Both the position numbers and the translations under genes were made by a program. Below, in pieces: positions 1 through 14,618 of a DNA stretch of 27,951 nucleotides. This DNA comes from a virus. Lineage: Duplodnaviria > Heunggongvirae > Uroviricota > Caudoviricetes. The notes below the pieces were generated by a model. It ran no database searches, was not told the origin of the DNA, and saw nothing but the letters and a program-made list of their open reading frames with translations. The stretch lies in IMG/VR virus record IMGVR_UViG_3300005323_000036; one strand, given 5' to 3'. Positions within the stretch are counted from its first letter, which is position 1; the number at the start of each line of letters is the position of its first letter.

Positions 1-30
1 ATTTTTACATTAACCAGCAAATTTTATAGG

Positions 31-445
31 ATATTGTAATATTAGTGGCGACGGGATAGAAAAGTATTATCTTTAATGGCTACTGTAATTTTAATAGATC
101 TATTATTTCTTTTCTTAAAAGCATAACTTACTGTAATTTTAATGGCGACGTGATACTGTAATTTTAATAGATCTATTATTACTATATTAACCTGGATCTA
201 CTATCATCTTCCTCTTCTCTTCATAACATTTATATACTATTAAATACAATATTATTTTGGCACAGCAGAAACAGAGAATTAGATCTATTACAAGGAAAGA
301 TTTGTGGCGATTTCTTTTCTTCTTTTTCTTTGTTATGAGTTTTAGGGAATCTGACTGTTTTCACACGAGGTTATCTTTTAATGGCGGAGTGTTACCTTTG
401 TTTAGAATTGTAATACTGTATTTTTGTTAGTGGCGACGTGATATA
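31..445. repeat. Cluster of short direct repeats and palindromes (TACTGTAATTTTAAT, TAATAGATCTATTA, RTGGCGACG)
   Basis: 27-bp exact repeat TACTGTAATTTTAATAGATCTATTATT at 81-107 and 154-180; TACTGTAATTTTAAT also at 129-143; 14-bp palindrome TAATAGATCTATTA at 92-105 and 165-178; TGGCGACG near 46, 143 and 431. Confidence 0.85.
289..343 (-). repeat. Dispersed CTCATAAC-purine tract element, copy 1
   Basis: Reverse complement AAAACTCATAACAAAGAAAAAGAAGAAAAG...CTTTCCTTGTA resembles copies at 6578, 22775 and 25063. Confidence 0.7.
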
Positions 446-480
446 AAAGAAAGATAGAGAAAAGAGTTTTGTTGTGGGAT

Positions 481-690
481 TTACTTTCTTCCTACCGATG
501 ATATAAAACCACAGAATGTAAACACGAAGAAGGCTAGCCAGTTCCAAAAGTTAATTGCTAGTGGAATGTATGATACAAACATCTGTGATAGTAGGAAGTT
601 TAGAATAATAATCGTAAGAACTGGTCCTAGAATCAACATTACAATTGCAATAATGATCAATACGATTCCTGTTAAAATTTCATCTGCCAT
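481..690 (-). CDS. Small membrane protein (two hydrophobic segments)
   Basis: ATG start; GP-x6-LN-x-L...IP...W-x-A pattern recalled from small phage membrane proteins. Confidence 0.7.
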   Translation of the reverse strand: MADEILTGIVLIIIAIVMLILGPVLTIIILNFLLSQMFVSYIPLAINFWNWLAFFVFTFCGFISSVGRK

Positions 691-751
691 ACAACATCTT
701 ATTTGTTTTAATAGATAATAAATATTTTCGTCAATAAATACTATGTGTTGA

Positions 752-1852
752 TTAATCTATTTTAAAGTTTGATATCTTGTTTATACCAAGTGATTTAACA
801 AATGTTAATTTATCTGCATCATTATATGAGTTATATAGTTCTATCATGTGTTGATGTTCTTCTTTTTCTTTAGTTAGAAAGTTAGTTATAAATTCTTCAC
901 TTATTGTATATGCTCCAAATGGTTGTCTAGTATTTAGATTACTATGTCTTACTTGTATACATCTGATTAATTGTTTGTATGATATTGCGGTTAGTTTATT
1001 GAATCTGAATTCACAGTGTGAATTACAATAGTTTCTTGTATTATCGTATGTATAGAATGTTCTTTTACACCGTTTGCATGATTTTTTATATCTTATTGGT
1101 TTTATATTTAGTCTTTTATTGTGATTATAAAAAGACATTTTACATTTATTTGAACAGAATAATTTGTTATAATGCATCAATTCATATAAGTTAATGGGGA
1201 TATGATTGTTACATTTTGGATTATTACATTTTATAAATAGGAGTCTATAATCATCTTTTTCTGCTATTATCTTTTCTGGTCTATATACATCTGCATGAGC
1301 ATCATTCCAAGTTTCTTTTGCAATTACTCTATCTATTTCTTGTTGGAGCAGACCTTTAATTTCTTCTTTAGATTTAATTTTAAATTTAAATATAGTATGG
1401 TTTATATAATTCAATACATTTTGAGTTAAATAAGGTTTGTAGAGTGGTCCAATATTTTTTAATAGAGTACCATTATATTTTTTATATAATTTTGTTCGTG
1501 ATATTGGATTATTCCTTACTTTATAATCAGGATCATAATTTTTGTGTTCTATATTGTTTTTTAGACCCAATTTGATGCATTGTTTAATATAGTTTTGTTT
1601 TGTTATTTTCGATTTATGGGTTTTACAGTGTTCACAACAGTGTTCGCGATTGTCGTATGTAATAAATTTCTTGTTACATGATTTATTTATACAGTGTTTT
1701 GTCTTTTTCTCCAATTTAAGTTTATAAGTGTATTTTCTACAGTTATTACAACAGAATAATTTATTGTATCTTTTGTATTCTTCATAATCTACATTTATGT
1801 AATTATTACATGTTGGATTATTACACTTAATCTCAATTATCTTTGGTAACAT
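752..1852 (-). CDS. Zinc-finger protein with two copies of a tandem treble-clef (TRASH/zf-FCS-like) module
   Basis: IKCNNPxCNNxI...YNKLFCxNxC...CxxxCxxxFxTYDN..xCxxHC occurs at about aa 8-77 and aa 207-281. Confidence 0.8.
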   Translation of the reverse strand: MLPKIIEIKCNNPTCNNYINVDYEEYKRYNKLFCCNNCRKYTYKLKLEKKTKHCINKSCNKKFITYDNREHCCEHCKTHKSKITKQNYIKQCIKLGLKNNIEHKNYDPDYKVRNNPISRTKLYKKYNGTLLKNIGPLYKPYLTQNVLNYINHTIFKFKIKSKEEIKGLLQQEIDRVIAKETWNDAHADVYRPEKIIAEKDDYRLLFIKCNNPKCNNHIPINLYELMHYNKLFCSNKCKMSFYNHNKRLNIKPIRYKKSCKRCKRTFYTYDNTRNYCNSHCEFRFNKLTAISYKQLIRCIQVRHSNLNTRQPFGAYTISEEFITNFLTKEKEEHQHMIELYNSYNDADKLTFVKSLGINKISNFKID

Positions 1853-1869
1853 ATGTATCTATAATATCG

Positions 1870-2600
1870 ATAGCATACTATATAAACATATTTACATATC
1901 AAAATTATATGACATAGTTAATAAAATATCCAATTAAATTTATTTTTTCTTGTATTAAATATCATATATTGTTTTAATTTATGGCGACACACTTATAGTA
2001 TGAATCTGTATAATTACAATATATTTAGATTTTTATACCACCATTAAAAGTAATTTTACCAACTATCATATTTTAACTGTCATGTTAGAAATTACATATT
2101 AAAATAAAACACCATAGTTAATATTTTATACGTTTATATTGGTTATTTTAATTAATTAACTACTATTATAGTTTATTTTTATAGAGACGCATTTGTATTA
2201 TCATCTCATATAATTATACTATTTTTGATAGAATCTACTATAGTTTGTGTTTATGATAGGTAATGGTGAACATAATATTTTAACTACTATGCAAATTACA
2301 TATTAAAAATAAGTGTTAACGTAAATAAAATACGCATGTAATATAGATTATATTAGATATAAACGTTGGTTGTTCTTTATTTTTAAGGTGACGCTATTGT
2401 AGTATGATTATGTATAATTATAGTATTTGGGTTATTTTATTATCATCTTCATAAATTTATAACTTTTTAAATATTATACTATACAAATATTAATACTATC
2501 AAAATTTACATATGTAAATAATAGTGCATAGTTAAAATAATATCGTATTGAATATGGTTATTTATAAATTGTATGTATTATATTGACTATTTTGACATCC
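1870..2600. repeat. Degenerate ~205-bp tandem repeat (3 full copies + 1 partial) in an AT-rich intergenic region
   Basis: TTACATAT anchors at 1892, 2092, 2296 and 2506; alignable internal blocks CATAGTTAA, TGGTTATTT and TTTATTTTTAxRGxGACRC..TTRTAGTAT...TATAATTA. Confidence 0.7.
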
Positions 2601-2775
2601 ACATTCTACCTTCTATCTTCTCCCTCTGTAAACACGCATATCACCACTCATTAAATACGTCTAAATTATGGGTTAAATAACGGTGCGCCTGCCTTAAAAA
2701 TATGAATATTAGTTTAAATCTAATAGAATAACGAAAGAAATGAAAATAAAAGGATTACTGTGAATTTGGGCAAAC

Positions 2776-2790
2776 ACCCGCACAGCGGGT
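2776..2790. other. GC-rich perfect inverted repeat ACCCGC-ACA-GCGGGT
   Basis: 6-bp perfect stem with 3-nt loop in AT-rich surroundings; partial direct repeat CCCGCAGCG at 2808-2816. Confidence 0.55.
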
Positions 2791-2854
2791 AAAGTATGTA
2801 TATATTCCCCGCAGCGTTTTACTTATTGTTTTTATTAGTATATAAACTTAATGG

Positions 2855-2875
2855 TTCTACAGTGGAAATGAAGGT
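2855..2875 (+). promoter_or_regulatory. ORB/mini-ORB-like motif (possible Orc1/Cdc6 site)
   Basis: TTCTACAGTGGAAATGAAGGT resembles the archaeal ORB consensus TTCCAGTGGAAA...GGGG; only one copy seen. Confidence 0.4.
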
Positions 2876-2984
2876 ATATGATCATAAGAAGTATTAGTTT
2901 AGTGTTACTAGTATAGACAGATTGATAATACAATTCCCAATATGGACAGTAGAAGAAATGAGGAGAAAGTATTAAGATGGATCA

Positions 2985-3395
2985 TTGACTATTAATTGTA
3001 TGAATAAAGTATCAAAAAACATATCTTATTCATTGACATGGATATTAGAACATGATTATAAACTCTGGTCTTTATGTTTAAGGAAAAAGAAATTTTTAAG
3101 TAAATCTTATGCCAATAAATACATAATTGCTAGAAAGTTTGGTAAGCCAATGAATGTGTTTAAGTGTAGAATATGTGGGTTTTATCATGTTGGAACAGAC
3201 TTTAAGCATGGTGGAACAAAGATAGCAACCTTTGGAAATAAAACATATAAATTAGTTAAAACAGTAGATAGTCAAGATAAAGCAATAGACTATGTAAAAT
3301 ATTATCAAAGAACTAATATTAAATTTAAAATTAGAACATATAACAAACCTATTTCACAAAGAGGAATGTATTATATTTATGCAGATGTTCAATAA
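2985..3395 (+). CDS. Hypothetical basic protein with a CxxCxxxH zinc-knuckle motif
   Basis: FKCRICGFYHVG resembles the phage YxCxxCxxWH motif; start uncertain (TTG 2985 or ATG 3000). Confidence 0.7.
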   Translation: MTINCMNKVSKNISYSLTWILEHDYKLWSLCLRKKKFLSKSYANKYIIARKFGKPMNVFKCRICGFYHVGTDFKHGGTKIATFGNKTYKLVKTVDSQDKAIDYVKYYQRTNIKFKIRTYNKPISQRGMYYIYADVQ

Positions 3396-3457
3396 TAGAT
3401 AGTATTAAGATGAATTAGATACAATATACAATAGAAAACAAAGGTAAATGATATAGA

Positions 3458-3709
3458 ATGGCTGTAGATTGGAATACTGTTAATGAAGGTGTTATGCAAC
3501 TTTCACATACAGATAAAACAGAATTGACACGTGCTTCATACATATCAGAATTAATTAATGGATATACACATGAAGGACAACTAGAATTAATGTATCTAAT
3601 GCTTCGTGGTTACATTATAAATGCTAATAAAACACCTAATGAAGCAGCATCAGCATTTAAAGTAATGGATTTTGTAGGTAAACAATTCAACCGTAACTGG
3701 AGAATTTAA
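3458..3709 (+). CDS. Hypothetical protein
   Basis: ATG ORF with protein-like composition in a co-oriented block. Confidence 0.7.
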   Translation: MAVDWNTVNEGVMQLSHTDKTELTRASYISELINGYTHEGQLELMYLMLRGYIINANKTPNEAASAFKVMDFVGKQFNRNWRI

Positions 3710-3712
3710 ATC

Positions 3713-3916
3713 ATGAAAGAAAAAACAGTTAGAAGTTTCTTATTAAGGTGTGTTAAAGATGCACAAGATCGACATAAAGTTAATGATCTATATAACTTTG
3801 GATTAAACATGGGCTTTATAGAAATGATGTTAAGAGATCCAACAGTAACAAATCTGGATGATATTCATAAATTTAAAACTGCTAATAATAATGTAGAAGG
3901 TGGTGTGAAACAATGA
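3713..3916 (+). CDS. Hypothetical protein
   Basis: ATG ORF; ATGA overlap with the next gene; ends in a GGTG RBS-like sequence. Confidence 0.7.
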   Translation: MKEKTVRSFLLRCVKDAQDRHKVNDLYNFGLNMGFIEMMLRDPTVTNLDDIHKFKTANNNVEGGVKQ

Positions 3917-4563
3917 ATAAGAAATTACTAGATTCTATTTATTTAGTTATGTCAGACTGTCCCAATTACAGTTCTATTCATAGTATTATCTCTAAACAAG
4001 AATTGCATGATATGATGATGAAACCTGAAAACATGCTGGAATTCCTATCACTATTTGCTAATGCTATAGGAATTGATGATGAATCAGATTGTAATACTAA
4101 ATGTGGTATTGATTGTTCAGAATGTGGTGATATAACTGAATCTGATTGTATCCATGTAATTCTAAACAACATTAGAAATAATATTAATAAACCAAGACAA
4201 CAAAGAGGGCCAACTGTTATAGTTACACCAACAAAATATTATTGTAAAGGTTGTACATATTTTGTATTATCACAAAGATATAAATGTGATTCATACAATA
4301 ATAATAAAACATCATATTGGCTGACACAGTGTGCATTTAACTGTTTAAAAACAATATCAGAACTATCAGATAATCCTGAAACTCCTTCCTGGTGCAAATA
4401 TCTAAAGGAAGAAGTAGAAGATAAATCACAAATTTGTAAATATCTTGATACTGAACGTCAAACTTGCTTAAATGCACAAATAACAAACTTTGGCACATCA
4501 TGTCCCTGGGGAGATGGATATAAACTTCATCCTGGATTTATGTGCCCAAGTTCATCAAAATAG
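3913..4563 (+). CDS. Multi-module Cys-rich hypothetical protein
   Basis: CxxxC-x2-C, YCKGC...TPSWCKY and CKYLD...C...CP...C modules shared with other ORFs in the window. Confidence 0.75.
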   Translation: MNKKLLDSIYLVMSDCPNYSSIHSIISKQELHDMMMKPENMLEFLSLFANAIGIDDESDCNTKCGIDCSECGDITESDCIHVILNNIRNNINKPRQQRGPTVIVTPTKYYCKGCTYFVLSQRYKCDSYNNNKTSYWLTQCAFNCLKTISELSDNPETPSWCKYLKEEVEDKSQICKYLDTERQTCLNAQITNFGTSCPWGDGYKLHPGFMCPSSSK

Positions 4564-4621
4564 TACCCAAAGAAAGAGAAAGAACAAAACAAATAAAATC
4601 TAACTTGTGACAATTTTTATT

Positions 4622-5008
4622 ATGAGACTTTGGCATCAATCGCTTATACCGAAACTTCCACGGAAGCAGTTACTAGGACTTCATCGGGAAATTTGTGCCT
4701 TGAGGGGTAATGGGTGGGGTAAGAAACACGCGACGGTTGATTATGTGTTCACTCATCCTATGGAATGGCTTATTGCTTATCACGTAGTTGTTATGGATCA
4801 AATGACAAATAGAGGTTATAACGTTGATAAAAAGTGGTTTGATATTTTATATAGAGGTAAGTCATGTGAAAGAAACTCTAATATTAATCTCAATTTAGTA
4901 GTTCAATTGAGATATACTATGAACCCAATCTACAAAGAACACAACGATACTTACCTACAGGAATGTCTTGATAATCTTAAAAGTAAAAACATCACAATTG
5001 AAATATAA
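4622..5008 (+). CDS. TIGR02328 family / pyrimidine dimer DNA glycosylase-like (T4 endonuclease V fold) protein
   Basis: MRLWHQSLIPKLPRKQLLGLHREICALRGNGWGKKHATVDYVF...YH..VM..M..RGY matches the recalled family signature almost exactly; start moved to ATG 4622. Confidence 0.9.
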   Translation: MRLWHQSLIPKLPRKQLLGLHREICALRGNGWGKKHATVDYVFTHPMEWLIAYHVVVMDQMTNRGYNVDKKWFDILYRGKSCERNSNINLNLVVQLRYTMNPIYKEHNDTYLQECLDNLKSKNITIEI

Positions 5009-5037
5009 ATCTACAACTATTCTCTTCTTCCCATAAC

Positions 5038-5060
5038 TTTATCATCTTATACAGCCTATA
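5038..5060 (+). promoter_or_regulatory. Promoter-like motif TTTATCAT...TACAGCCTATA
   Basis: Variant of the motif at 7185, 10275 and 10601. Confidence 0.5.
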
Positions 5061-5076
5061 CTATATTGGTGATTGT

Positions 5077-5349
5077 ATAGCAATTGGTTCAATTATTAGA
5101 GGTGAATACAAAGATGTATTTGCAGATCTTTACAAACTGTATGGAAATAGTAGAACATTTACATTCAAGGAGGCTAAACAAAAGATTCCACATTACACCA
5201 TATCACAACACAGACGACTATTGTTTAATGCAGCAATAACACGCATCAAATATATTAATGGTAGAACATGCCTATGTAAACTAAACAACGATGCAATAGC
5301 AAGCCTACAGAGAGTTAAAAAGAATAAGGAAAAGAAGTGTGTAGAATAA
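5077..5349 (+). CDS. Winged-helix-like protein lacking a canonical start codon (paralog of 10873-11253); absent from the ORF track
   Basis: Open frame (I)AIGSIIRGEYKDVFADLYKLYGNSRTFTFKEAKQKIPHYTISQHRRLLFNAAITRIKYINGRTCLCKLNNDAIASLQRVKKNKEKKCVE*; GGTGA RBS at 5068-5072 followed by ATA/ATT. Confidence 0.6.
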   Translation: MAIGSIIRGEYKDVFADLYKLYGNSRTFTFKEAKQKIPHYTISQHRRLLFNAAITRIKYINGRTCLCKLNNDAIASLQRVKKNKEKKCVE

Positions 5350-5548
5350 AATGAATGAATATATACCGAGTTATGAATGCATTGAGATTGGATATACAAG
5401 TAACGATATAATTCACCAATGGAAGAATAAAAGAGATAATTGGAAATGAATAAAGTAGATATTTATCTTTTATGTATATGCTGTATATTTATTGGGTTTT
5501 ATTTAGGATTTATTGTTGGAATTGGCAATTAAATGGAGATTAAGAAAA

Positions 5549-5707
5549 ATGTATGGATTTATTAGAAAAACACAATGTCCTGAATGTGGTTCTGATGAAA
5601 TTGATGTAGAAGGATTCAGAACTGTAGGGACAGAATCATTTGATGTATATATTTGTAACAACTGCGGTCAGATATGGGATGATTCAGGAATAGACGACTT
5701 TGATTAA
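5549..5707 (+). CDS. Small zinc-ribbon protein
   Basis: CPECGS...YICNNCGQ; ATG 5549 preferred over TTG 5513. Confidence 0.75.
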   Translation: MYGFIRKTQCPECGSDEIDVEGFRTVGTESFDVYICNNCGQIWDDSGIDDFD

Positions 5708-5731
5708 AAATTTAAAAGGAAATGATTAAAA

Positions 5732-5875
5732 ATGGAAATTGAATATTGTTGTATGTGTGGTGAAGAAACTGGCAGGTCAGGATATGGAGATGATTCTTTA
5801 TATGCTAAAGATGGTAGTGGTCCATATTGTCCCGATTGTTACGATATAGTAATGAGTGAAGAACGTGAGGAATAA
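5732..5875 (+). CDS. Small CxxC...CxxC protein (47 aa, not in ORF track)
   Basis: MEIEYCCMCGEETGRSGYGDDSLYAKDGSGPYCPDCYDIVMSEEREE. Confidence 0.65.
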   Translation: MEIEYCCMCGEETGRSGYGDDSLYAKDGSGPYCPDCYDIVMSEEREE

Positions 5876-5876
5876 A

Positions 5877-6068
5877 ATGCATGAAGAAGATGATAATCAA
5901 TTTCTGTGTCCATTTTCATTAAACAGAGAAGAACCACTTTACTGTAACGAAGGATATACAGGAACATATAACCAAAGTTTCATAGCAGAAAGACGTTGTA
6001 GAGCATGGAGAGTAGTTAATCTAGATATTTGTAAATATGGATATTGTAAATTAATAGATAAGGTATAA
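5877..6068 (+). CDS. Small Cys-rich hypothetical protein
   Basis: LCPF...C...CRAW...GYCKLID; ATG directly after the upstream stop. Confidence 0.65.
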   Translation: MHEEDDNQFLCPFSLNREEPLYCNEGYTGTYNQSFIAERRCRAWRVVNLDICKYGYCKLIDKV

Positions 6069-6071
6069 TAT

Positions 6072-6317
6072 ATGAATGAAAATACTATTGTAAAATTTAT
6101 TGGGTGTAGTGAATCTCAACACAATTTTGGTAATCATACTGGAAACTATAACAATCTTGTTATAGGAAAAGAATACGTTGTTGAAAAGACAGAAGTTCAT
6201 TCATGGCATACCAAAGTGTATTTAAAAGGTATTGTTGGTAATTTCAATAGTGTGTGTTTTGAAAAACTTTTTAAATATCCATCAGAAACAAACATAAAGA
6301 ATATTCATGATCAATAA
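6072..6317 (+). CDS. Conserved phage hypothetical protein (SH3-like beta barrel)
   Basis: LVIGKEYVV..TEVHSWHTKVYL.G..G.FNSVCFE motif recalled from phage proteins. Confidence 0.7.
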   Translation: MNENTIVKFIGCSESQHNFGNHTGNYNNLVIGKEYVVEKTEVHSWHTKVYLKGIVGNFNSVCFEKLFKYPSETNIKNIHDQ

Positions 6318-6507
6318 TAAACTTTACATTTTAGAAGTTCCATCATGTGCTGATTGTCCAAATATTAAAATTTGTAAAATTGCATGGGAACATACTGATG
6401 AAAATACATTTCCTAAAGATTGTCCACTTCCAGATGCAGACATTCCATGTATGAAAACATATATTAACGGTTATAATTTGGAATGCGGTAACCGTTTCAA
6501 TTATTAA
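6307..6507 (+). CDS. Small CxxCP...P-x-x-CPL protein
   Basis: SCADCP...FPKDCPL. Confidence 0.7.
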   Translation: MINNKLYILEVPSCADCPNIKICKIAWEHTDENTFPKDCPLPDADIPCMKTYINGYNLECGNRFNY

Positions 6508-6577
6508 ATAACATAAATAAACTTTTCTTTAATTAAAACAATTAAACTGTAACTAATGAAACTAACAGGCAACTCCC

Positions 6578-6627
6578 AAAACTCATAACAAAAAGGAAAG
6601 AAGAAAAAGAAAATTCCCTTCTTGCTA
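6578..6627 (+). repeat. Dispersed CTCATAAC-purine tract element, copy 2
   Basis: AAAACTCATAACAAAAAGGAAAGAAGAAAAAGAAAATTCCCTTCTTGCTA. Confidence 0.75.
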
Positions 6628-6802
6628 TTGGGCGCACAATACTAGATGTCACTCCAGTATCTATAATAATATTGTCCTCCATAATATATAAAGATTCCTG
6701 TAATCCCATCGTCACTAAAAGATATGATCAATAATAGATCTATAAACTTGTAATTATCTTCTTACCAAAACTATTATAATGTTATAATCTAAATATATAC
6801 TT

Positions 6803-7144
6803 ATGAAAAGTGATAAATTGAATAAAGTTATAAAAGAACTTGCTATTAGATGTGGGTGTATTAATCGGGGTTGTAATAGTAATAACGATAGTGAACCTGA
6901 TAATTTAGAATACAAATATACGACTGATAAAAACGTTAGTTATATTTACAATTCCAATTATAATGGAGTGGCTATCGTAATAAATGATACACTTTATTAT
7001 GATAATATACTAGGATGGTGTGGAAAATATAAAACTCACCTTGTAAGATATTATACATATGATTTGTATAGTAAATTGATTGGTAGTGATTTAACAAATG
7101 TAAATATCACTACTGCAAAAATAATAGACAGTCTTTTCGATTAA
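6803..7144 (+). CDS. Hypothetical protein
   Basis: ATG ORF downstream of a TAGATCTA/AAACTATTATAAT promoter-like region. Confidence 0.7.
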   Translation: MKSDKLNKVIKELAIRCGCINRGCNSNNDSEPDNLEYKYTTDKNVSYIYNSNYNGVAIVINDTLYYDNILGWCGKYKTHLVRYYTYDLYSKLIGSDLTNVNITTAKIIDSLFD

Positions 7145-7207
7145 TAGATCTATAAACATATTCTTCCTCCCTCTCTCCAATAGTTTTATCATGTATTACA
7201 ACCTATA
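7145..7207 (+). promoter_or_regulatory. TAGATCTA - pyrimidine tract - TTTATCAT...TACAACCTATA boundary cassette
   Basis: Same order of elements at about 193, 5007, 6735, 9276, 20491, 25229 and 26879; inverted copy at about 10233-10263. Confidence 0.65.
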
Positions 7208-7215
7208 TAGTAGTA

Positions 7216-7446
7216 GAGGAAGTAAGACAAGTTACAGGTAATTCTTGTAACTTTTCCTTGATGACCATTGGATAATCACTGTCCACGGTAATGCAGCAGT
7301 GCCAATGAGATAGGTTTTTCAGTTAAGAATTCTATAATGGTTCTTTCACGAGAATCAAAGGAATGTAACGACTGAATAAAAGTAGTGGGGTAACTAGCAG
7401 ACAGTTGAATAAAGATTTTAGAATTAGTTCGTTCTAATTTTAAGAT
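7216..7446 (+). ncRNA. Candidate structured RNA or long 5' leader
   Basis: Consecutive helices: 7229-7238/7244-7253 (10 bp) inside 7216-7221/7254-7259; 7266-7271/7302-7307 with 7277-7281/7297-7301; three nested helices across 7318-7376; 13-bp hairpin 7415-7446; starts right after a promoter motif. Confidence 0.55.
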
Positions 7447-7466
7447 ATCCAAAAGGAGATGAAAAA

Positions 7467-7631
7467 ATGAAAACTTATTTGATTAGATGTGAAACAACAT
7501 CATTAATTGAAGCAGAAAATGAACGTGAAGCATATAGAAATTTTAAAGAATCACATAACATCATTATTGGATTCAAACCTGACTTCATGAAAATTGTAGA
7601 AAGTAGTGTAGATATTAAAGGTGTGGAATAA
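7467..7631 (+). CDS. Small protein with an IEAENEREA motif (54 aa, not in ORF track)
   Basis: Strong AAGGAG RBS; MKTYLIRCETTSLIEAENEREAYRNF... Confidence 0.7.
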   Translation: MKTYLIRCETTSLIEAENEREAYRNFKESHNIIIGFKPDFMKIVESSVDIKGVE

Positions 7632-7933
7632 TGGTAATGTATGCAATAGATGATAAACATTATATTAATTTGGATAATGTTTGTAGTTATAGTAAAATAA
7701 AAGATACAGATTTTTGTAGGTATCTAAAAGGAGATTGTAAGTATAGTGAAAGCATTGGATGTGATACATGTATTACTTGTAAATATTATAGAATTAATAC
7801 TAAAAAGTTTAGAATCGTTTTTAAAATGAACAATGGAGATATATTTAGAAAATGCTTTTCTACCTATGATGACATGCGTGTAGAATTTAGAAAGTTAGAA
7901 TACAAAAATTATGAAAATAAAACAGAATTTTAA
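7631..7933 (+). CDS. Hypothetical protein with a Cys-rich insert
   Basis: TAATG coupling; YINLDNV...CRY..GDC.Y...GCDTC..C...FRIVF. Confidence 0.7.
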   Translation: MVMYAIDDKHYINLDNVCSYSKIKDTDFCRYLKGDCKYSESIGCDTCITCKYYRINTKKFRIVFKMNNGDIFRKCFSTYDDMRVEFRKLEYKNYENKTEF

Positions 7934-8147
7934 ACTATCTAGGAAAGTTTCGTTTGAAAATCCAGATAGGTCAGTATCATTATACACAACCTCTCTAATT
8001 ATTGATGGCAAATTTGATACCACAACTTATGGAATAGAAATACGGATCGGTAGTAATATGATTTATACTCATTATGGTAATGATCTGTTTAATGCAGAAT
8101 TAAACTTTAGACAAATACATGAAATATATCTAAAATATTGGAGTTAG
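7911..8147 (+). CDS. Hypothetical protein
   Basis: ATG ORF overlapping the upstream gene. Confidence 0.65.
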   Translation: MKIKQNFKLSRKVSFENPDRSVSLYTTSLIIDGKFDTTTYGIEIRIGSNMIYTHYGNDLFNAELNFRQIHEIYLKYWS

Positions 8148-8393
8148 AAAAATTAATTGTGATATACTATGAAACTAGATGTAAAACTTGAAACTAAACT
8201 AAAAACAATTGTCAAATCTTATGGAATTGATGAGGTTTTAAGATATCTATGTAATAATTATCATATAGAATTTATAAACTTCATAGAAACCCAATTAAAT
8301 AAAGATGATGTAGGCTATTACAGGTAGATAGTAGAAGAGAAAAGTAGAGTATTTTATTGAAACTAAAATTTTAAAACTATAACCCTGATTAAC

Positions 8394-8768
8394 ATGACTG
8401 GATATAATTTGCCACCTGGATGTAATGAATCTGATATTCCTGGATGGAATGACATTACTGTATCGTTTGATATTGAATTTAATGTATATGGAGATTATGA
8501 ACCTGACGATGATAAACCAATTACTAGAATTGCAAAAGAACTCGTAGGCCTTGATGTAAGTGTTCTTACGTATCAGACAAATTCTATCAATGGCACATTT
8601 GTAGCACTAGTAAGATATTCAGATGATATAGACATCGATGAAAGTAATATTTACGATTCCAATGATGTTTATGATGCTATAATCAAATATATGAATTCAA
8701 TTATGGACGAAGTAACTCTAGACAAAAACGATCAAAGCATAGAAATAAATTATAAAGTTCATAGGTAA
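8394..8768 (+). CDS. Acidic hypothetical protein with an N-terminal NLPPGC...DIPG motif
   Basis: Motif recalled from phage hypothetical proteins; very acidic. Confidence 0.7.
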   Translation: MTGYNLPPGCNESDIPGWNDITVSFDIEFNVYGDYEPDDDKPITRIAKELVGLDVSVLTYQTNSINGTFVALVRYSDDIDIDESNIYDSNDVYDAIIKYMNSIMDEVTLDKNDQSIEINYKVHR

Positions 8769-9003
8769 GGAGGGATAAGGAAATTATGAATATATTACAA
8801 TCTTTATATTTAAAAAAATTATTTGAAAGAAAACAAGATACAATTAACTATGAAACATATCTAAATCAGATACTTGAAGTTAATACAGATATTCTCGAAG
8901 GGTTAGTATATAGTTTAAAAGAATGTAATTCTAAAATTGATAATTTATAGAAAGAAATTAATGACATTAAAAGAAATATTAAATAAAAAATTAGGATAAA
9001 ATT

Positions 9004-9237
9004 ATGATTGGTGGAAATGCAATGGTTATAAATAATAACCTAAATAAATTAGCAACAAGTAGTGATCCAAATGATAGATATCTTTCATTAATACTAATGA
9101 TTACTATAATTTTTATGTTTGTTGCATTAGTATTTTCAATATGGTTTAATGAATATAAAGAACAAAATAGTTGTAAAAACTATAAATCTGGGTTTAATGA
9201 TTGTGATAAATATAAAGAACGAAATAAATGGAAATGA
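9004..9237 (+). CDS. Small single-pass membrane protein
   Basis: Hydrophobic stretch LSLILMITIIFMFVALVFSIWF. Confidence 0.65.
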   Translation: MIGGNAMVINNNLNKLATSSDPNDRYLSLILMITIIFMFVALVFSIWFNEYKEQNSCKNYKSGFNDCDKYKERNKWK

Positions 9238-9314
9238 GATAAGAACTTAAAAACTAATATTCTTACTTTCCCGTATAGATCTACAAATTTATCCTCTCCT
9301 TCATTCTTATTATT

Positions 9315-10235
9315 ATGACTACAACTGTTGAAACTTTAAATGATTTTGTGATTGATGATTCTGTAAAACAAGTTATTGAATTTTCGATACAAGCAGCAAA
9401 GAAACGAAAAGAACCACTTAAACATATATTGCTTTCTGGTGCAGGAGGTTTAGGTAAATCAACATTAGCATATCTAATTTATAAAAAGTATAATCAAAGT
9501 GGTAGTTTTGTAACATTGTATGGACCATCTATTCAAAACAACTTTTCTTTAATTAAAGTAATTTTATCTTTAAAAGACGGTGATGTATTATTTATTGATG
9601 AGGTTCATGCAATTAAAGATAAAACTATCATAGAAAACCTTTATTCAGTCATCCAGGATCATATTATTAACATTAGAACAAATGGTTCATACATTAGAAA
9701 ACCAGTAAAGAATTTCACATTTATTGTAGCAACTACTGATTTGTTTAAACTTACAGACTCGTTTATTGGTAGATTCCCAATTAAAATAGACATTCTACCT
9801 TATAACATAGATCAACTATCAACTATGATTAATTTCTATAGTGATATGAAACTTACAGAAGAAGCATCAAGAAAGATTGCTGAAATAAGTAGAGGTGTGG
9901 CGCGCAATGCTGTAGAAAACACCGGTATGATTGATCTATATGCAAGTTCAAAAGATCTCAAAACGGTTAATCTAGACGACGTGATTGCATGTTTTAAATT
10001 ATTAAATATTGATTCTAATGGACTTAATAAGATTCAACGTGAATATCTTGAATTGTTAAACGATCATTTGGGGGAAAGTCTATCACTTAATATTATTAGT
10101 AGAATTTTAAACAAACCAACGGGTGAAGTAACACGATTTATTGAACCAGTGTTATTGTCAATGGGATTTATTGAAATTGGTGGTAAAGGTAGAAGCATAA
10201 CCCAAAAAGGATCAGACATTGCAGAAGAGGGGTAA
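9315..10235 (+). CDS. ruvB: RuvB-family AAA+ ATPase (Holliday junction branch-migration motor homolog)
   Basis: EPLKHILLSGAGGLGKST (Walker A), GDVLFIDEVH (Walker B), FTFIVATT (sensor 1), GRF (Arg finger), SRGVAR (sensor 2), C-terminal winged helix D.NGL...IEPVLL..GFI....KGR. Confidence 0.92.
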   Translation: MTTTVETLNDFVIDDSVKQVIEFSIQAAKKRKEPLKHILLSGAGGLGKSTLAYLIYKKYNQSGSFVTLYGPSIQNNFSLIKVILSLKDGDVLFIDEVHAIKDKTIIENLYSVIQDHIINIRTNGSYIRKPVKNFTFIVATTDLFKLTDSFIGRFPIKIDILPYNIDQLSTMINFYSDMKLTEEASRKIAEISRGVARNAVENTGMIDLYASSKDLKTVNLDDVIACFKLLNIDSNGLNKIQREYLELLNDHLGESLSLNIISRILNKPTGEVTRFIEPVLLSMGFIEIGGKGRSITQKGSDIAEEG

Positions 10236-14475: not shown

Positions 14476-14618
14476 ATTATGATGGAATTTTTAATGATTT
14501 TAATTGTTGCATTTATAGCAGATTGTGTATTTGCAATTTGTTATGAAATGTATTGGTGGCTACAGAACAGAAGAGTAAGTTAATAGTGGTTATTTAAATA
14601 AATTAGGAATATATCTTT

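Follow-up and report, generated by a model that had tools for sequence, protein, structure and literature searches.

Within the 27,951-nt stretch of DNA analysed here, hereafter the window (bases 50521-78471 of the 127,255-bp IMG/VR virus record IMGVR_UViG_3300005323_000036, a Caudoviricetes genome with direct terminal repeats and about 28% GC, G000 below), the gap separating a 113-aa open reading frame (ORF) from a 54-aa ORF encodes what is, on comparative grounds, a structured, conserved plus-strand RNA of some 250 nt, shared by a small group of related phages. The evidence that carries this finding is the covariation, shown by sequence comparison between the window and the corresponding locus of a related phage (L053), of one stem of a hairpin domain (H2b) and of a long-range pseudoknot that ties the loop of the same domain to a conserved block further downstream. 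A sequence-only reading of the window had proposed a structured non-coding RNA at this place, and the lack of a plus-strand ORF, the plus-strand folding and the covariation of the H2 domain and the pseudoknot all bear it out. The parts of the RNA are listed below, together with z-scores against shuffled sequence for hairpins whose boundaries were picked after the fact.

7216-7259, plus strand: hairpin H1, in which 7216-7221 pairs with 7254-7259 (6 bp) and, after a 7-nt bulge, 7229-7238 pairs with 7244-7253 (10 bp) around a 5-nt loop; minimum free energy (MFE) -14.7, z -3.25.
7261-7312, plus strand: H2 domain, made of the conserved AUGAC, stem H2a (7266-7271/7302-7307), a 5-nt bulge, stem H2b (7277-7282/7296-7301), a 13-nt loop and the conserved AGA; z of the sub-hairpin -0.88.
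7283-7286 with 7385-7388, plus strand: pseudoknot between CCAC of the H2 loop and GUGG of the conserved block (CUGU/GCAG in L053).
7318-7376, plus strand: H3, variable, with three nested helices (7318-7324/7370-7376, 7329-7333/7360-7364 and 7338-7345/7350-7357); z -3.23.
7381-7414, plus strand: conserved block, mostly unpaired, made of GUAG, the 3' strand of the pseudoknot (7385-7388), GGGUAACU, 5 nt, ACAGU, 1 nt and GA; unstructured when folded alone, z +0.61.
7415-7446, plus strand: hairpin H4, a perfect stem of 13 bp (7415-7427/7434-7446) capped by the loop UUCGUU, with its 3' end 6 nt upstream of the Shine-Dalgarno sequence; z -4.35, reached by 0/200 shuffles.

Close relatives of this phage are very rare in the public collections searched. 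The RuvB-like gene of the window (9315-10235) has three relatives at 52-55% identity, one of which lies on the 40-kb NCBI contig L053 from a genome (G001) labelled as an uncultured Saccharibacteria metagenome-assembled genome, which has a sigma-70 and no TBP. Two contigs of this genome, C4 and C8 (loci L053 and L273-L275; at least 75 kb of phage DNA), share their entire gene order with the phage of the window, with proteins about 45-70% identical, and, judging from this synteny, are a related phage binned with Saccharibacteria. The homologue of the leader is found at about 2446-2782 of L053, between a tnpB gene of the insertion sequence (IS) type, some 200 nt upstream, and a pentapeptide-repeat gene. 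Within it, a 12-mer and a 9-mer are retained with unchanged spacing, as is the distance from an upstream promoter box to H1. Shared 12-mers are common by chance between these AT-rich genomes. When a 19-base two-block pattern of H2, with a variable gap of 30-58 nt, was scanned against 596 Gb of GTDB genomes plus IMG/VR, only the G001 contig was genuine among 91 matches, and the chance of the two-block pattern occurring in 75 kb of related phage would be about 1 in 100,000 by our estimate, before the promoter spacing and the second block are considered.

Between the window and L053, the H2 domain aligns without gaps, with AUGACCAUUGGA and CCAAUGAGA identical, a loop of 13 nt in both phages and 12/12 pairs kept. 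In H2b, CACUGU/GCAGUG of the window becomes UAAGGU/GCCUUA in L053, that is 6/6 pairs kept with three both-sided compensatory changes, and RNAalifold independently predicts the H2 structure; an alternative fold of the domain (7269-7274/7280-7285) found no support from L053 and was rejected. As for the pseudoknot, its pairs shift from C-G, C-G, A-U and C-G in the window to C-G, U-A, G-C and U-G in L053, i.e. two both-sided changes and a one-sided one, and the block varies at two positions, precisely those that pair with the H2 loop. Since this TCCAC/GTGGG pairing had been proposed beforehand from the window alone, L053, where it is kept with compensatory changes, provides a fair test. Over H2, the pseudoknot and H3 together, 98.6% of cells are paired vs. 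31-49% when the partners are slid, and five pairs are changed on both sides vs. 0-1. That exact blocks and compensated pairs are kept while the proteins of the two phages are only about half identical signals function.

Beyond this core, the block reads GUAG-NN-GGGUAACU-N5-ACAGU-N-GA in L053, where GGTAACT, ACAGT and GA are invariant in both of its copies. The place of H1 is taken by a GAAA-loop hairpin of 14 bp (z -9.06) whose sequence is unrelated, with only the 3' end GUAACUU in common, and the 59-nt H3 is swapped for an 18-nt hairpin. At the position of H4, L053 has a hairpin with the loop UUCGAGU, then U6, about 25 nt before the Shine-Dalgarno sequence, and a weaker hairpin with U4 upstream. 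This terminal hairpin has as its arm CAGGUUCGAGUCCUG (also given as CAGGTTCGAGTCCTG; T-arm consensus, GGUUCGAGUCC), a textbook T-arm of tRNA, carried by an AU stem of 7 bp, so that the elements by which a tRNA-like minihelix is recognised, namely a 7-bp stem on a T arm and a UUCRANY loop, are all present (CAGG-UUCGAGU-CCUG on AUAUAUU/AAUAUAU). The UUCGUU loop of H4 in the window is not a T-loop, as it has U where A58 is needed. Besides, positions 2595-2640 and 2673-2717 of L053 form a 45-nt direct repeat with the block GGTAACTTACTTACAGTAGATCAAA, each copy being followed by a hairpin and a U run, an arrangement suggesting that the 3' module of the leader was duplicated in tandem. In the window as in the first unit of L053, the block runs at its 3' end into the 5' strand of the hairpin that follows.

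A partial relative is provided by a 677-nt ENA contig (L048), 90% identical to 7302-7472. All 28 positions of 7381-7408 are identical (28/28), H4 has undergone one change only (U-G to U-A), and the differences are concentrated in H3 (88% identical), where one G-U pair has become G-C and the tip is shorter. Two further features of the window were tried and rejected on this contig, namely the U5 run at 7316-7320 as a terminator, broken by T to G at 7316, and a long-range UUUUUCA/UGAAAAA pairing with the start region, which is lost. In contigs with an identical 113-aa protein, the leader is 100% identical. The ENA assemblies ERZ27247097 and ERZ27245805 stem from the source samples.

Upon refolding, all the helices with which the earlier reading had tiled the gap were present, including the bulges it had placed on the 5' side of two stems (7 nt in H1 and 5 nt in H2). 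Positions 7216-7446 have an MFE of -54.7 kcal/mol on the plus strand (z -2.36; 2/200 shuffles as good) vs. z -0.75 on the minus strand, and from the predicted transcription start to the AUG (7215-7469) the plus strand reaches z -2.59, so that the structure stands out from shuffled sequence, if modestly. The plus strand scores better than the minus strand because of many G-U pairs, an asymmetry indicative of a plus-strand RNA. Among the perfect plus-strand hairpins of the 127-kb genome, H4 ranks fourth in length, the four longest being all intergenic and all located in this early region. The three longer ones (16, 14 and 15 bp; 14512-14547, 22774-22809 and 23402-23434, respectively) are intergenic, two of them directly before gene starts.

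Regarding coding content, no plus-strand ORF of at least 40 aa is found in 7145-7466, with stops throughout all three plus frames, and no minus-strand gene is called at the homologous place in L053; on this evidence the gap is non-coding on either strand. The ATG within the conserved 12-mer opens 4 codons in the window and 11 in L053, with no Shine-Dalgarno sequence before it; a leader peptide MTIG was thus rejected, for want of a Shine-Dalgarno sequence and for its differing length in L053. The surroundings of the RNA are as follows.

7145-7466: gap between the 113-aa ORF (6803-7144) and the 54-aa ORF (7467-7631).
7185-7192, plus strand: upstream promoter box TTTATCAT, at about -30 to -23 from the predicted start.
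7197-7207, plus strand: promoter-proximal motif TACAACCTATA, with exact copies at 7197, 10287 and 10613.
A7215, plus strand: predicted transcription start, deduced from the spacing at the 7197 copy, one base before H1.
7453-7458, plus strand: Shine-Dalgarno sequence AAGGAG, 8 nt upstream of the ATG at 7467.
7467-7631, plus strand: first operon gene (54 aa), with a single homologue found, in L048 (92% identical).

The promoter assignment stems from the distribution of these motifs. The motif TACAACCTATA has 35 matches at up to two mismatches vs. 18.6 expected, a number reached by 0/100 shuffles, and TACAnCCTATA has about 11 copies, clustered along both diverging arms of the early region; upstream of it comes a TTTAWCWAT or TTATTA box, often with GAAA as well. 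For four leftward genes (genome positions 49694, 49483, 49124 and 45159; minus strand, just left of the window), the ATG comes exactly 7 nt after TACAnCCTATA, without any Shine-Dalgarno sequence, and their mRNAs are probably leaderless; this spacing would place the transcription start about 8 nt after the motif, so that transcription of the leader probably begins near A7215. The earlier reading had the RNA begin right after a promoter motif and end just before AAGGAG; the predicted start lies one base ahead of the position it gave, and H4 does end 6 nt upstream of the Shine-Dalgarno sequence. The box TTTATCAT is found 30 nt before the A that precedes H1, both in the window (7185) and in L053 (2446), and a variant, TTTAACTAT, occupies the corresponding place at the promoter copies 10287 and 10613. 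Altogether, the geometry comprises a hexamer of the TAnnnT type around -11, together with a conserved box around -30, which we take to be compatible either with an archaeal promoter made of a B recognition element (BRE) and a TATA box or with a bacterial -10 element combined with a phage-activator box, as in T4 middle promoters. Of note, the palindrome ATAGATCTAT at 7145-7154 recurs at many intergenic sites of the genome, often just upstream of the promoter motif (e.g. before 10287), and may be an operator or a terminator-like site. A second promoter of the TTTATCAT type, at 5050, is followed by about 450 nt (5061-5512) with two TTG-start ORFs overlapping in different frames (5084-5239 and 5221-5349), a region resembling one frameshifted protein rather than a non-coding RNA.

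At the scale of the genome, the genes diverge from an AT-rich region near 1900-2900 of the window, and the leader sits in the rightward block of many small early ORFs. The gene that follows it is the 54-aa ORF in the window, a YkgJ-like ORF in L048 and the pentapeptide-repeat gene in L053; as the first gene differs in all three phages, the leader travels with the promoter and not with a gene. In L048, the YkgJ-like (CxxCxxCC) ORF of 90 aa (163-453) separates the leader from the 54-aa ORF, its insertion point being exactly the ribosome-binding site, the ATG aligned to 7467 is in another frame than the called GTG start, and a counterpart of the 100-aa ORF 7631-7933 is missing. The comparison of L048 with the window depicts gene-cassette turnover 3' of a fixed leader.

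Two observations concern the DNA just upstream of the gap. Positions 6508-6802 form another gap of about 295 nt without a plus-strand ORF of at least 40 aa, the GC skew of which is negative, opposite to the flanking plus-strand genes. The 3' two-thirds of the ORF 6803-7144 (6901-7130) fold on the plus strand with an MFE of -50.0 (z -4.33, 0/200 shuffles as good; minus strand, z -2.10), a plus-strand z beyond that of the leader at 7216-7446; the 113-aa ORF has no homologue but itself and may contain a structured RNA or not be a gene.

Searches for a catalogued identity of the RNA agreed with the earlier reading, which had recognised no riboswitch or ribozyme family. Against Rfam 15, there are 0 matches at the gathering threshold in the whole window, the four matches at E<=10 in 7000-7600 are at chance level, far below gathering scores, and do not overlap the leader, and the L053 homologue has no match at E<=1. 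With ARAGORN, neither tRNA nor tmRNA was found. A hammerhead and a C/D-box RNA were considered for the UUGAUGA of the window and the UUAUGA of L053, and rejected in the absence of a GAAA core or CUGA box at the required spacing and of any Rfam match. Further relatives were also sought, with blastn of 6800-7950 against 50,697 phage records (no match), with IMG/VR locus searches using the 113-aa, 100-aa, 54-aa, RuvB and PolB proteins (no relatives), with scans for two patterns, CCTATA joined to the H1 stem and TATTACAACCTATA (unrelated contigs only), with an 18-mer of the conserved block in JGI metagenomes (one chance match) and with model R1 in 250 G001-related genomes (no true match, the best one lying inside a 523-aa ORF).

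As to what the RNA does, the reading ranked first, which we hold tentatively, is that of a cis-acting regulatory 5' leader of the early operon, on account of its position, of the L053 hairpin with U6 and of the overlap of the block with the next hairpin. An RNA of five parts would head the operon, i.e. H1, H2, a pseudoknot of 4-5 bp joining the H2 loop to the block about 100 nt downstream, H3 and H4. The core made of H2, the pseudoknot and the block would sense a protein, an RNA or a small molecule; the state of this core would decide the formation of the 3' hairpin (H4 in the window, the hairpin with U6 in L053), which in turn would decide whether RNA polymerase or ribosomes continue into the operon. 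Transcription itself, its exact start, the regulatory role and the effector are what we infer here from sequence.

Known leaders offer partial parallels. Like riboswitches and attenuators (e.g. SAM-II or preQ1-type), the RNA would form a 5' untranslated region (UTR) right after a promoter, with conserved unpaired nucleotides locked by a hairpin-loop pseudoknot, and in both the window and L053 the core of H2, pseudoknot and block corresponds to the conserved structured aptamer generally expected of a riboswitch. On the side of the expression platform, the end of the L053 leader has the classic attenuator/riboswitch layout, a hairpin and U6 immediately upstream of the Shine-Dalgarno sequence, and the 5' strand of the hairpin that follows shares bases with the conserved 3' segment. 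The RNA differs from these leaders in having no Rfam match, no U tract after H4 in the window and functionally unrelated downstream genes across the phages; such unrelated first genes speak weakly against a metabolite ligand.

Another parallel is the put RNA of phage HK022, a cis-acting processive antitermination RNA made of two simple stem-loops without pseudoknot. Both are promoter-proximal structured RNAs heading a phage early operon of many small genes, and the leader described here is kept whatever the first gene is; however, it shows no resemblance to put in sequence or fold, and no terminators are predicted inside this operon. It is a rather improbable, if attractive, reading that the leader founds a new RNA class, one that senses a signal as a riboswitch does or modifies polymerase in the manner of put antitermination, gating the early host-takeover operon of a phage lineage possibly infecting Saccharibacteria.

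Several results weigh against the reading as a cis-acting leader. Over 86 control windows of 230 nt tiled over 1-10005, the mean z is -0.03 (sd, standard deviation, 1.14) and 3/86 lie beyond -2.36; the folding z of the leader is only modestly unusual next to other windows, and energy alone would not carry the claim. The shuffle control for the paired cells and both-sided changes matches the observed values in 18/500 cases, with a set of two divergent sequences and one partial one, which makes it a weak test. In L048, two substitutions and a 2-nt deletion weaken the tip of H3. A profile search with a conserved 124-aa neighbour retrieved 11 more distant homologues, and the leader was not detected in their long contigs (L279-L282) by model R1 and motif scans. 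Finally, H4 of the window is devoid of a U tract and leaves the Shine-Dalgarno sequence free, and no function is common to the downstream genes, an unusual situation for a metabolite riboswitch.

Rather than acting in cis, the RNA could be a stand-alone, trans-acting molecule (for example one that serves as decoy or regulator, or that partners with a protein of the phage or the host), freed by termination or cleavage at the 3' hairpin and exposing the block as its binding surface; we regard this as possible, though doubtful. In its favour, L053 has the hairpin and U6 at the end of the RNA and the weaker hairpin and U4 before; the T-arm on its 7-bp AU stem would be a possible handle for tRNA-processing enzymes, the duplication of the block and hairpin as a unit is in line with this reading, and so are the 28 nt of unpaired but sequence-conserved block, suited to partner recognition, and the lack of any tie to the identity of the first gene. 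Yet both the window and L048 lack the U tract after H4, and the H4 loop lacks the T-loop A58. The 6-25 nt from the 3' hairpin to the Shine-Dalgarno sequence are too short for a separate promoter, so that the genes need read-through, and scanning the whole phage genome for duplexes with the block brought up no target that stood out.

Known stand-alone RNAs invite the comparison. The pRNA of the phi29 family (RF00044) is likewise a non-coding phage transcript of some 170-250 nt driven by an early promoter, in which the sequence is little conserved but the fold is, and in which a 4-bp loop interaction covaries; it differs in that the pairing joins hairpin loops of two molecules, it is known only in small protein-primed phages, and there is no RF00044 match here. 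The tRNA-like minihelices and t-elements that serve as processing signals are evoked by the T-arm consensus on a 7-bp stem in L053, and by the 13-bp stem of H4 with a loop starting UUCG in the window; ARAGORN finds no tRNA, and the loop of the window is without A58. The omega RNA of TnpB/IS605 elements comes to mind for the location of the L053 homologue about 200 nt downstream of tnpB. It was rejected, with no PF07282 match in G000, which is without TnpB, and with seven TnpB genes but one model-R1 site in G001; a promoter box also separates tnpB from the RNA in L053, where the adjacency is most likely an incidental IS insertion.

An unlikely explanation is that of a passive module for mRNA stability or processing, in which the 5' hairpin would protect the early transcript and long hairpins ahead of genes would be RNase cleavage or stabiliser sites, as in T7-like early regions, with no sensing involved. 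It fits H1, which in either phage begins 1-2 nt at most from the predicted 5' end, as well as the intergenic, early-region location of the four longest perfect plus-strand hairpins, with two more standing directly ahead of gene starts; what it leaves unexplained is the strict conservation of AUGACCAUUGGA, CCAAUGAGA and the 28-nt block, together with the covarying long-range pseudoknot.

It is very unlikely that there is no RNA element at all, the blocks being DNA sites (operators or iterons) or a decayed gene and the hairpins incidental. The 45-nt direct repeat carrying the block in L053, the over-representation of AGTTACC in contig C4 of G001 (11 vs. 3.1 expected) and the frequent chance sharing of 12-mers would agree with this; against it, GGTAACT is not enriched in G000 (8 vs. 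9.6 expected), positions 100 nt from each other are tied by compensatory changes, G-U pairing holds for a single strand, and neither phage has an open frame.

The antisense 58-aa ORF (7276-7452, minus strand), whose conservation in place of base pairing the earlier reading had named as the outcome that would speak against an RNA, is open in the window but can be dismissed as a real gene, as the 2-nt deletion of L048 cuts it to about 34 codons, L053 has no such gene called, and it runs opposite to all neighbouring genes.

The bacterial-type RuvB, the hairpin and U6 terminator of L053 and the Saccharibacteria bin point to a bacterial rather than an archaeal host. It is possibly a member of the candidate phyla radiation (CPR), binning being weak evidence and no proof of host. 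The leader is an RNA motif without a catalogued family and yet of a familiar kind, the structured leader of a phage early operon. Its location at the entry to that operon, where relatives exchange host-takeover and anti-defence genes, makes it matter for the infection programme. To our knowledge, almost nothing is known of gene regulation in these phages or in their hosts and, if Saccharibacteria is the true host, the RNA and the class of promoter that precedes it would be among the first regulatory elements described for CPR phages.
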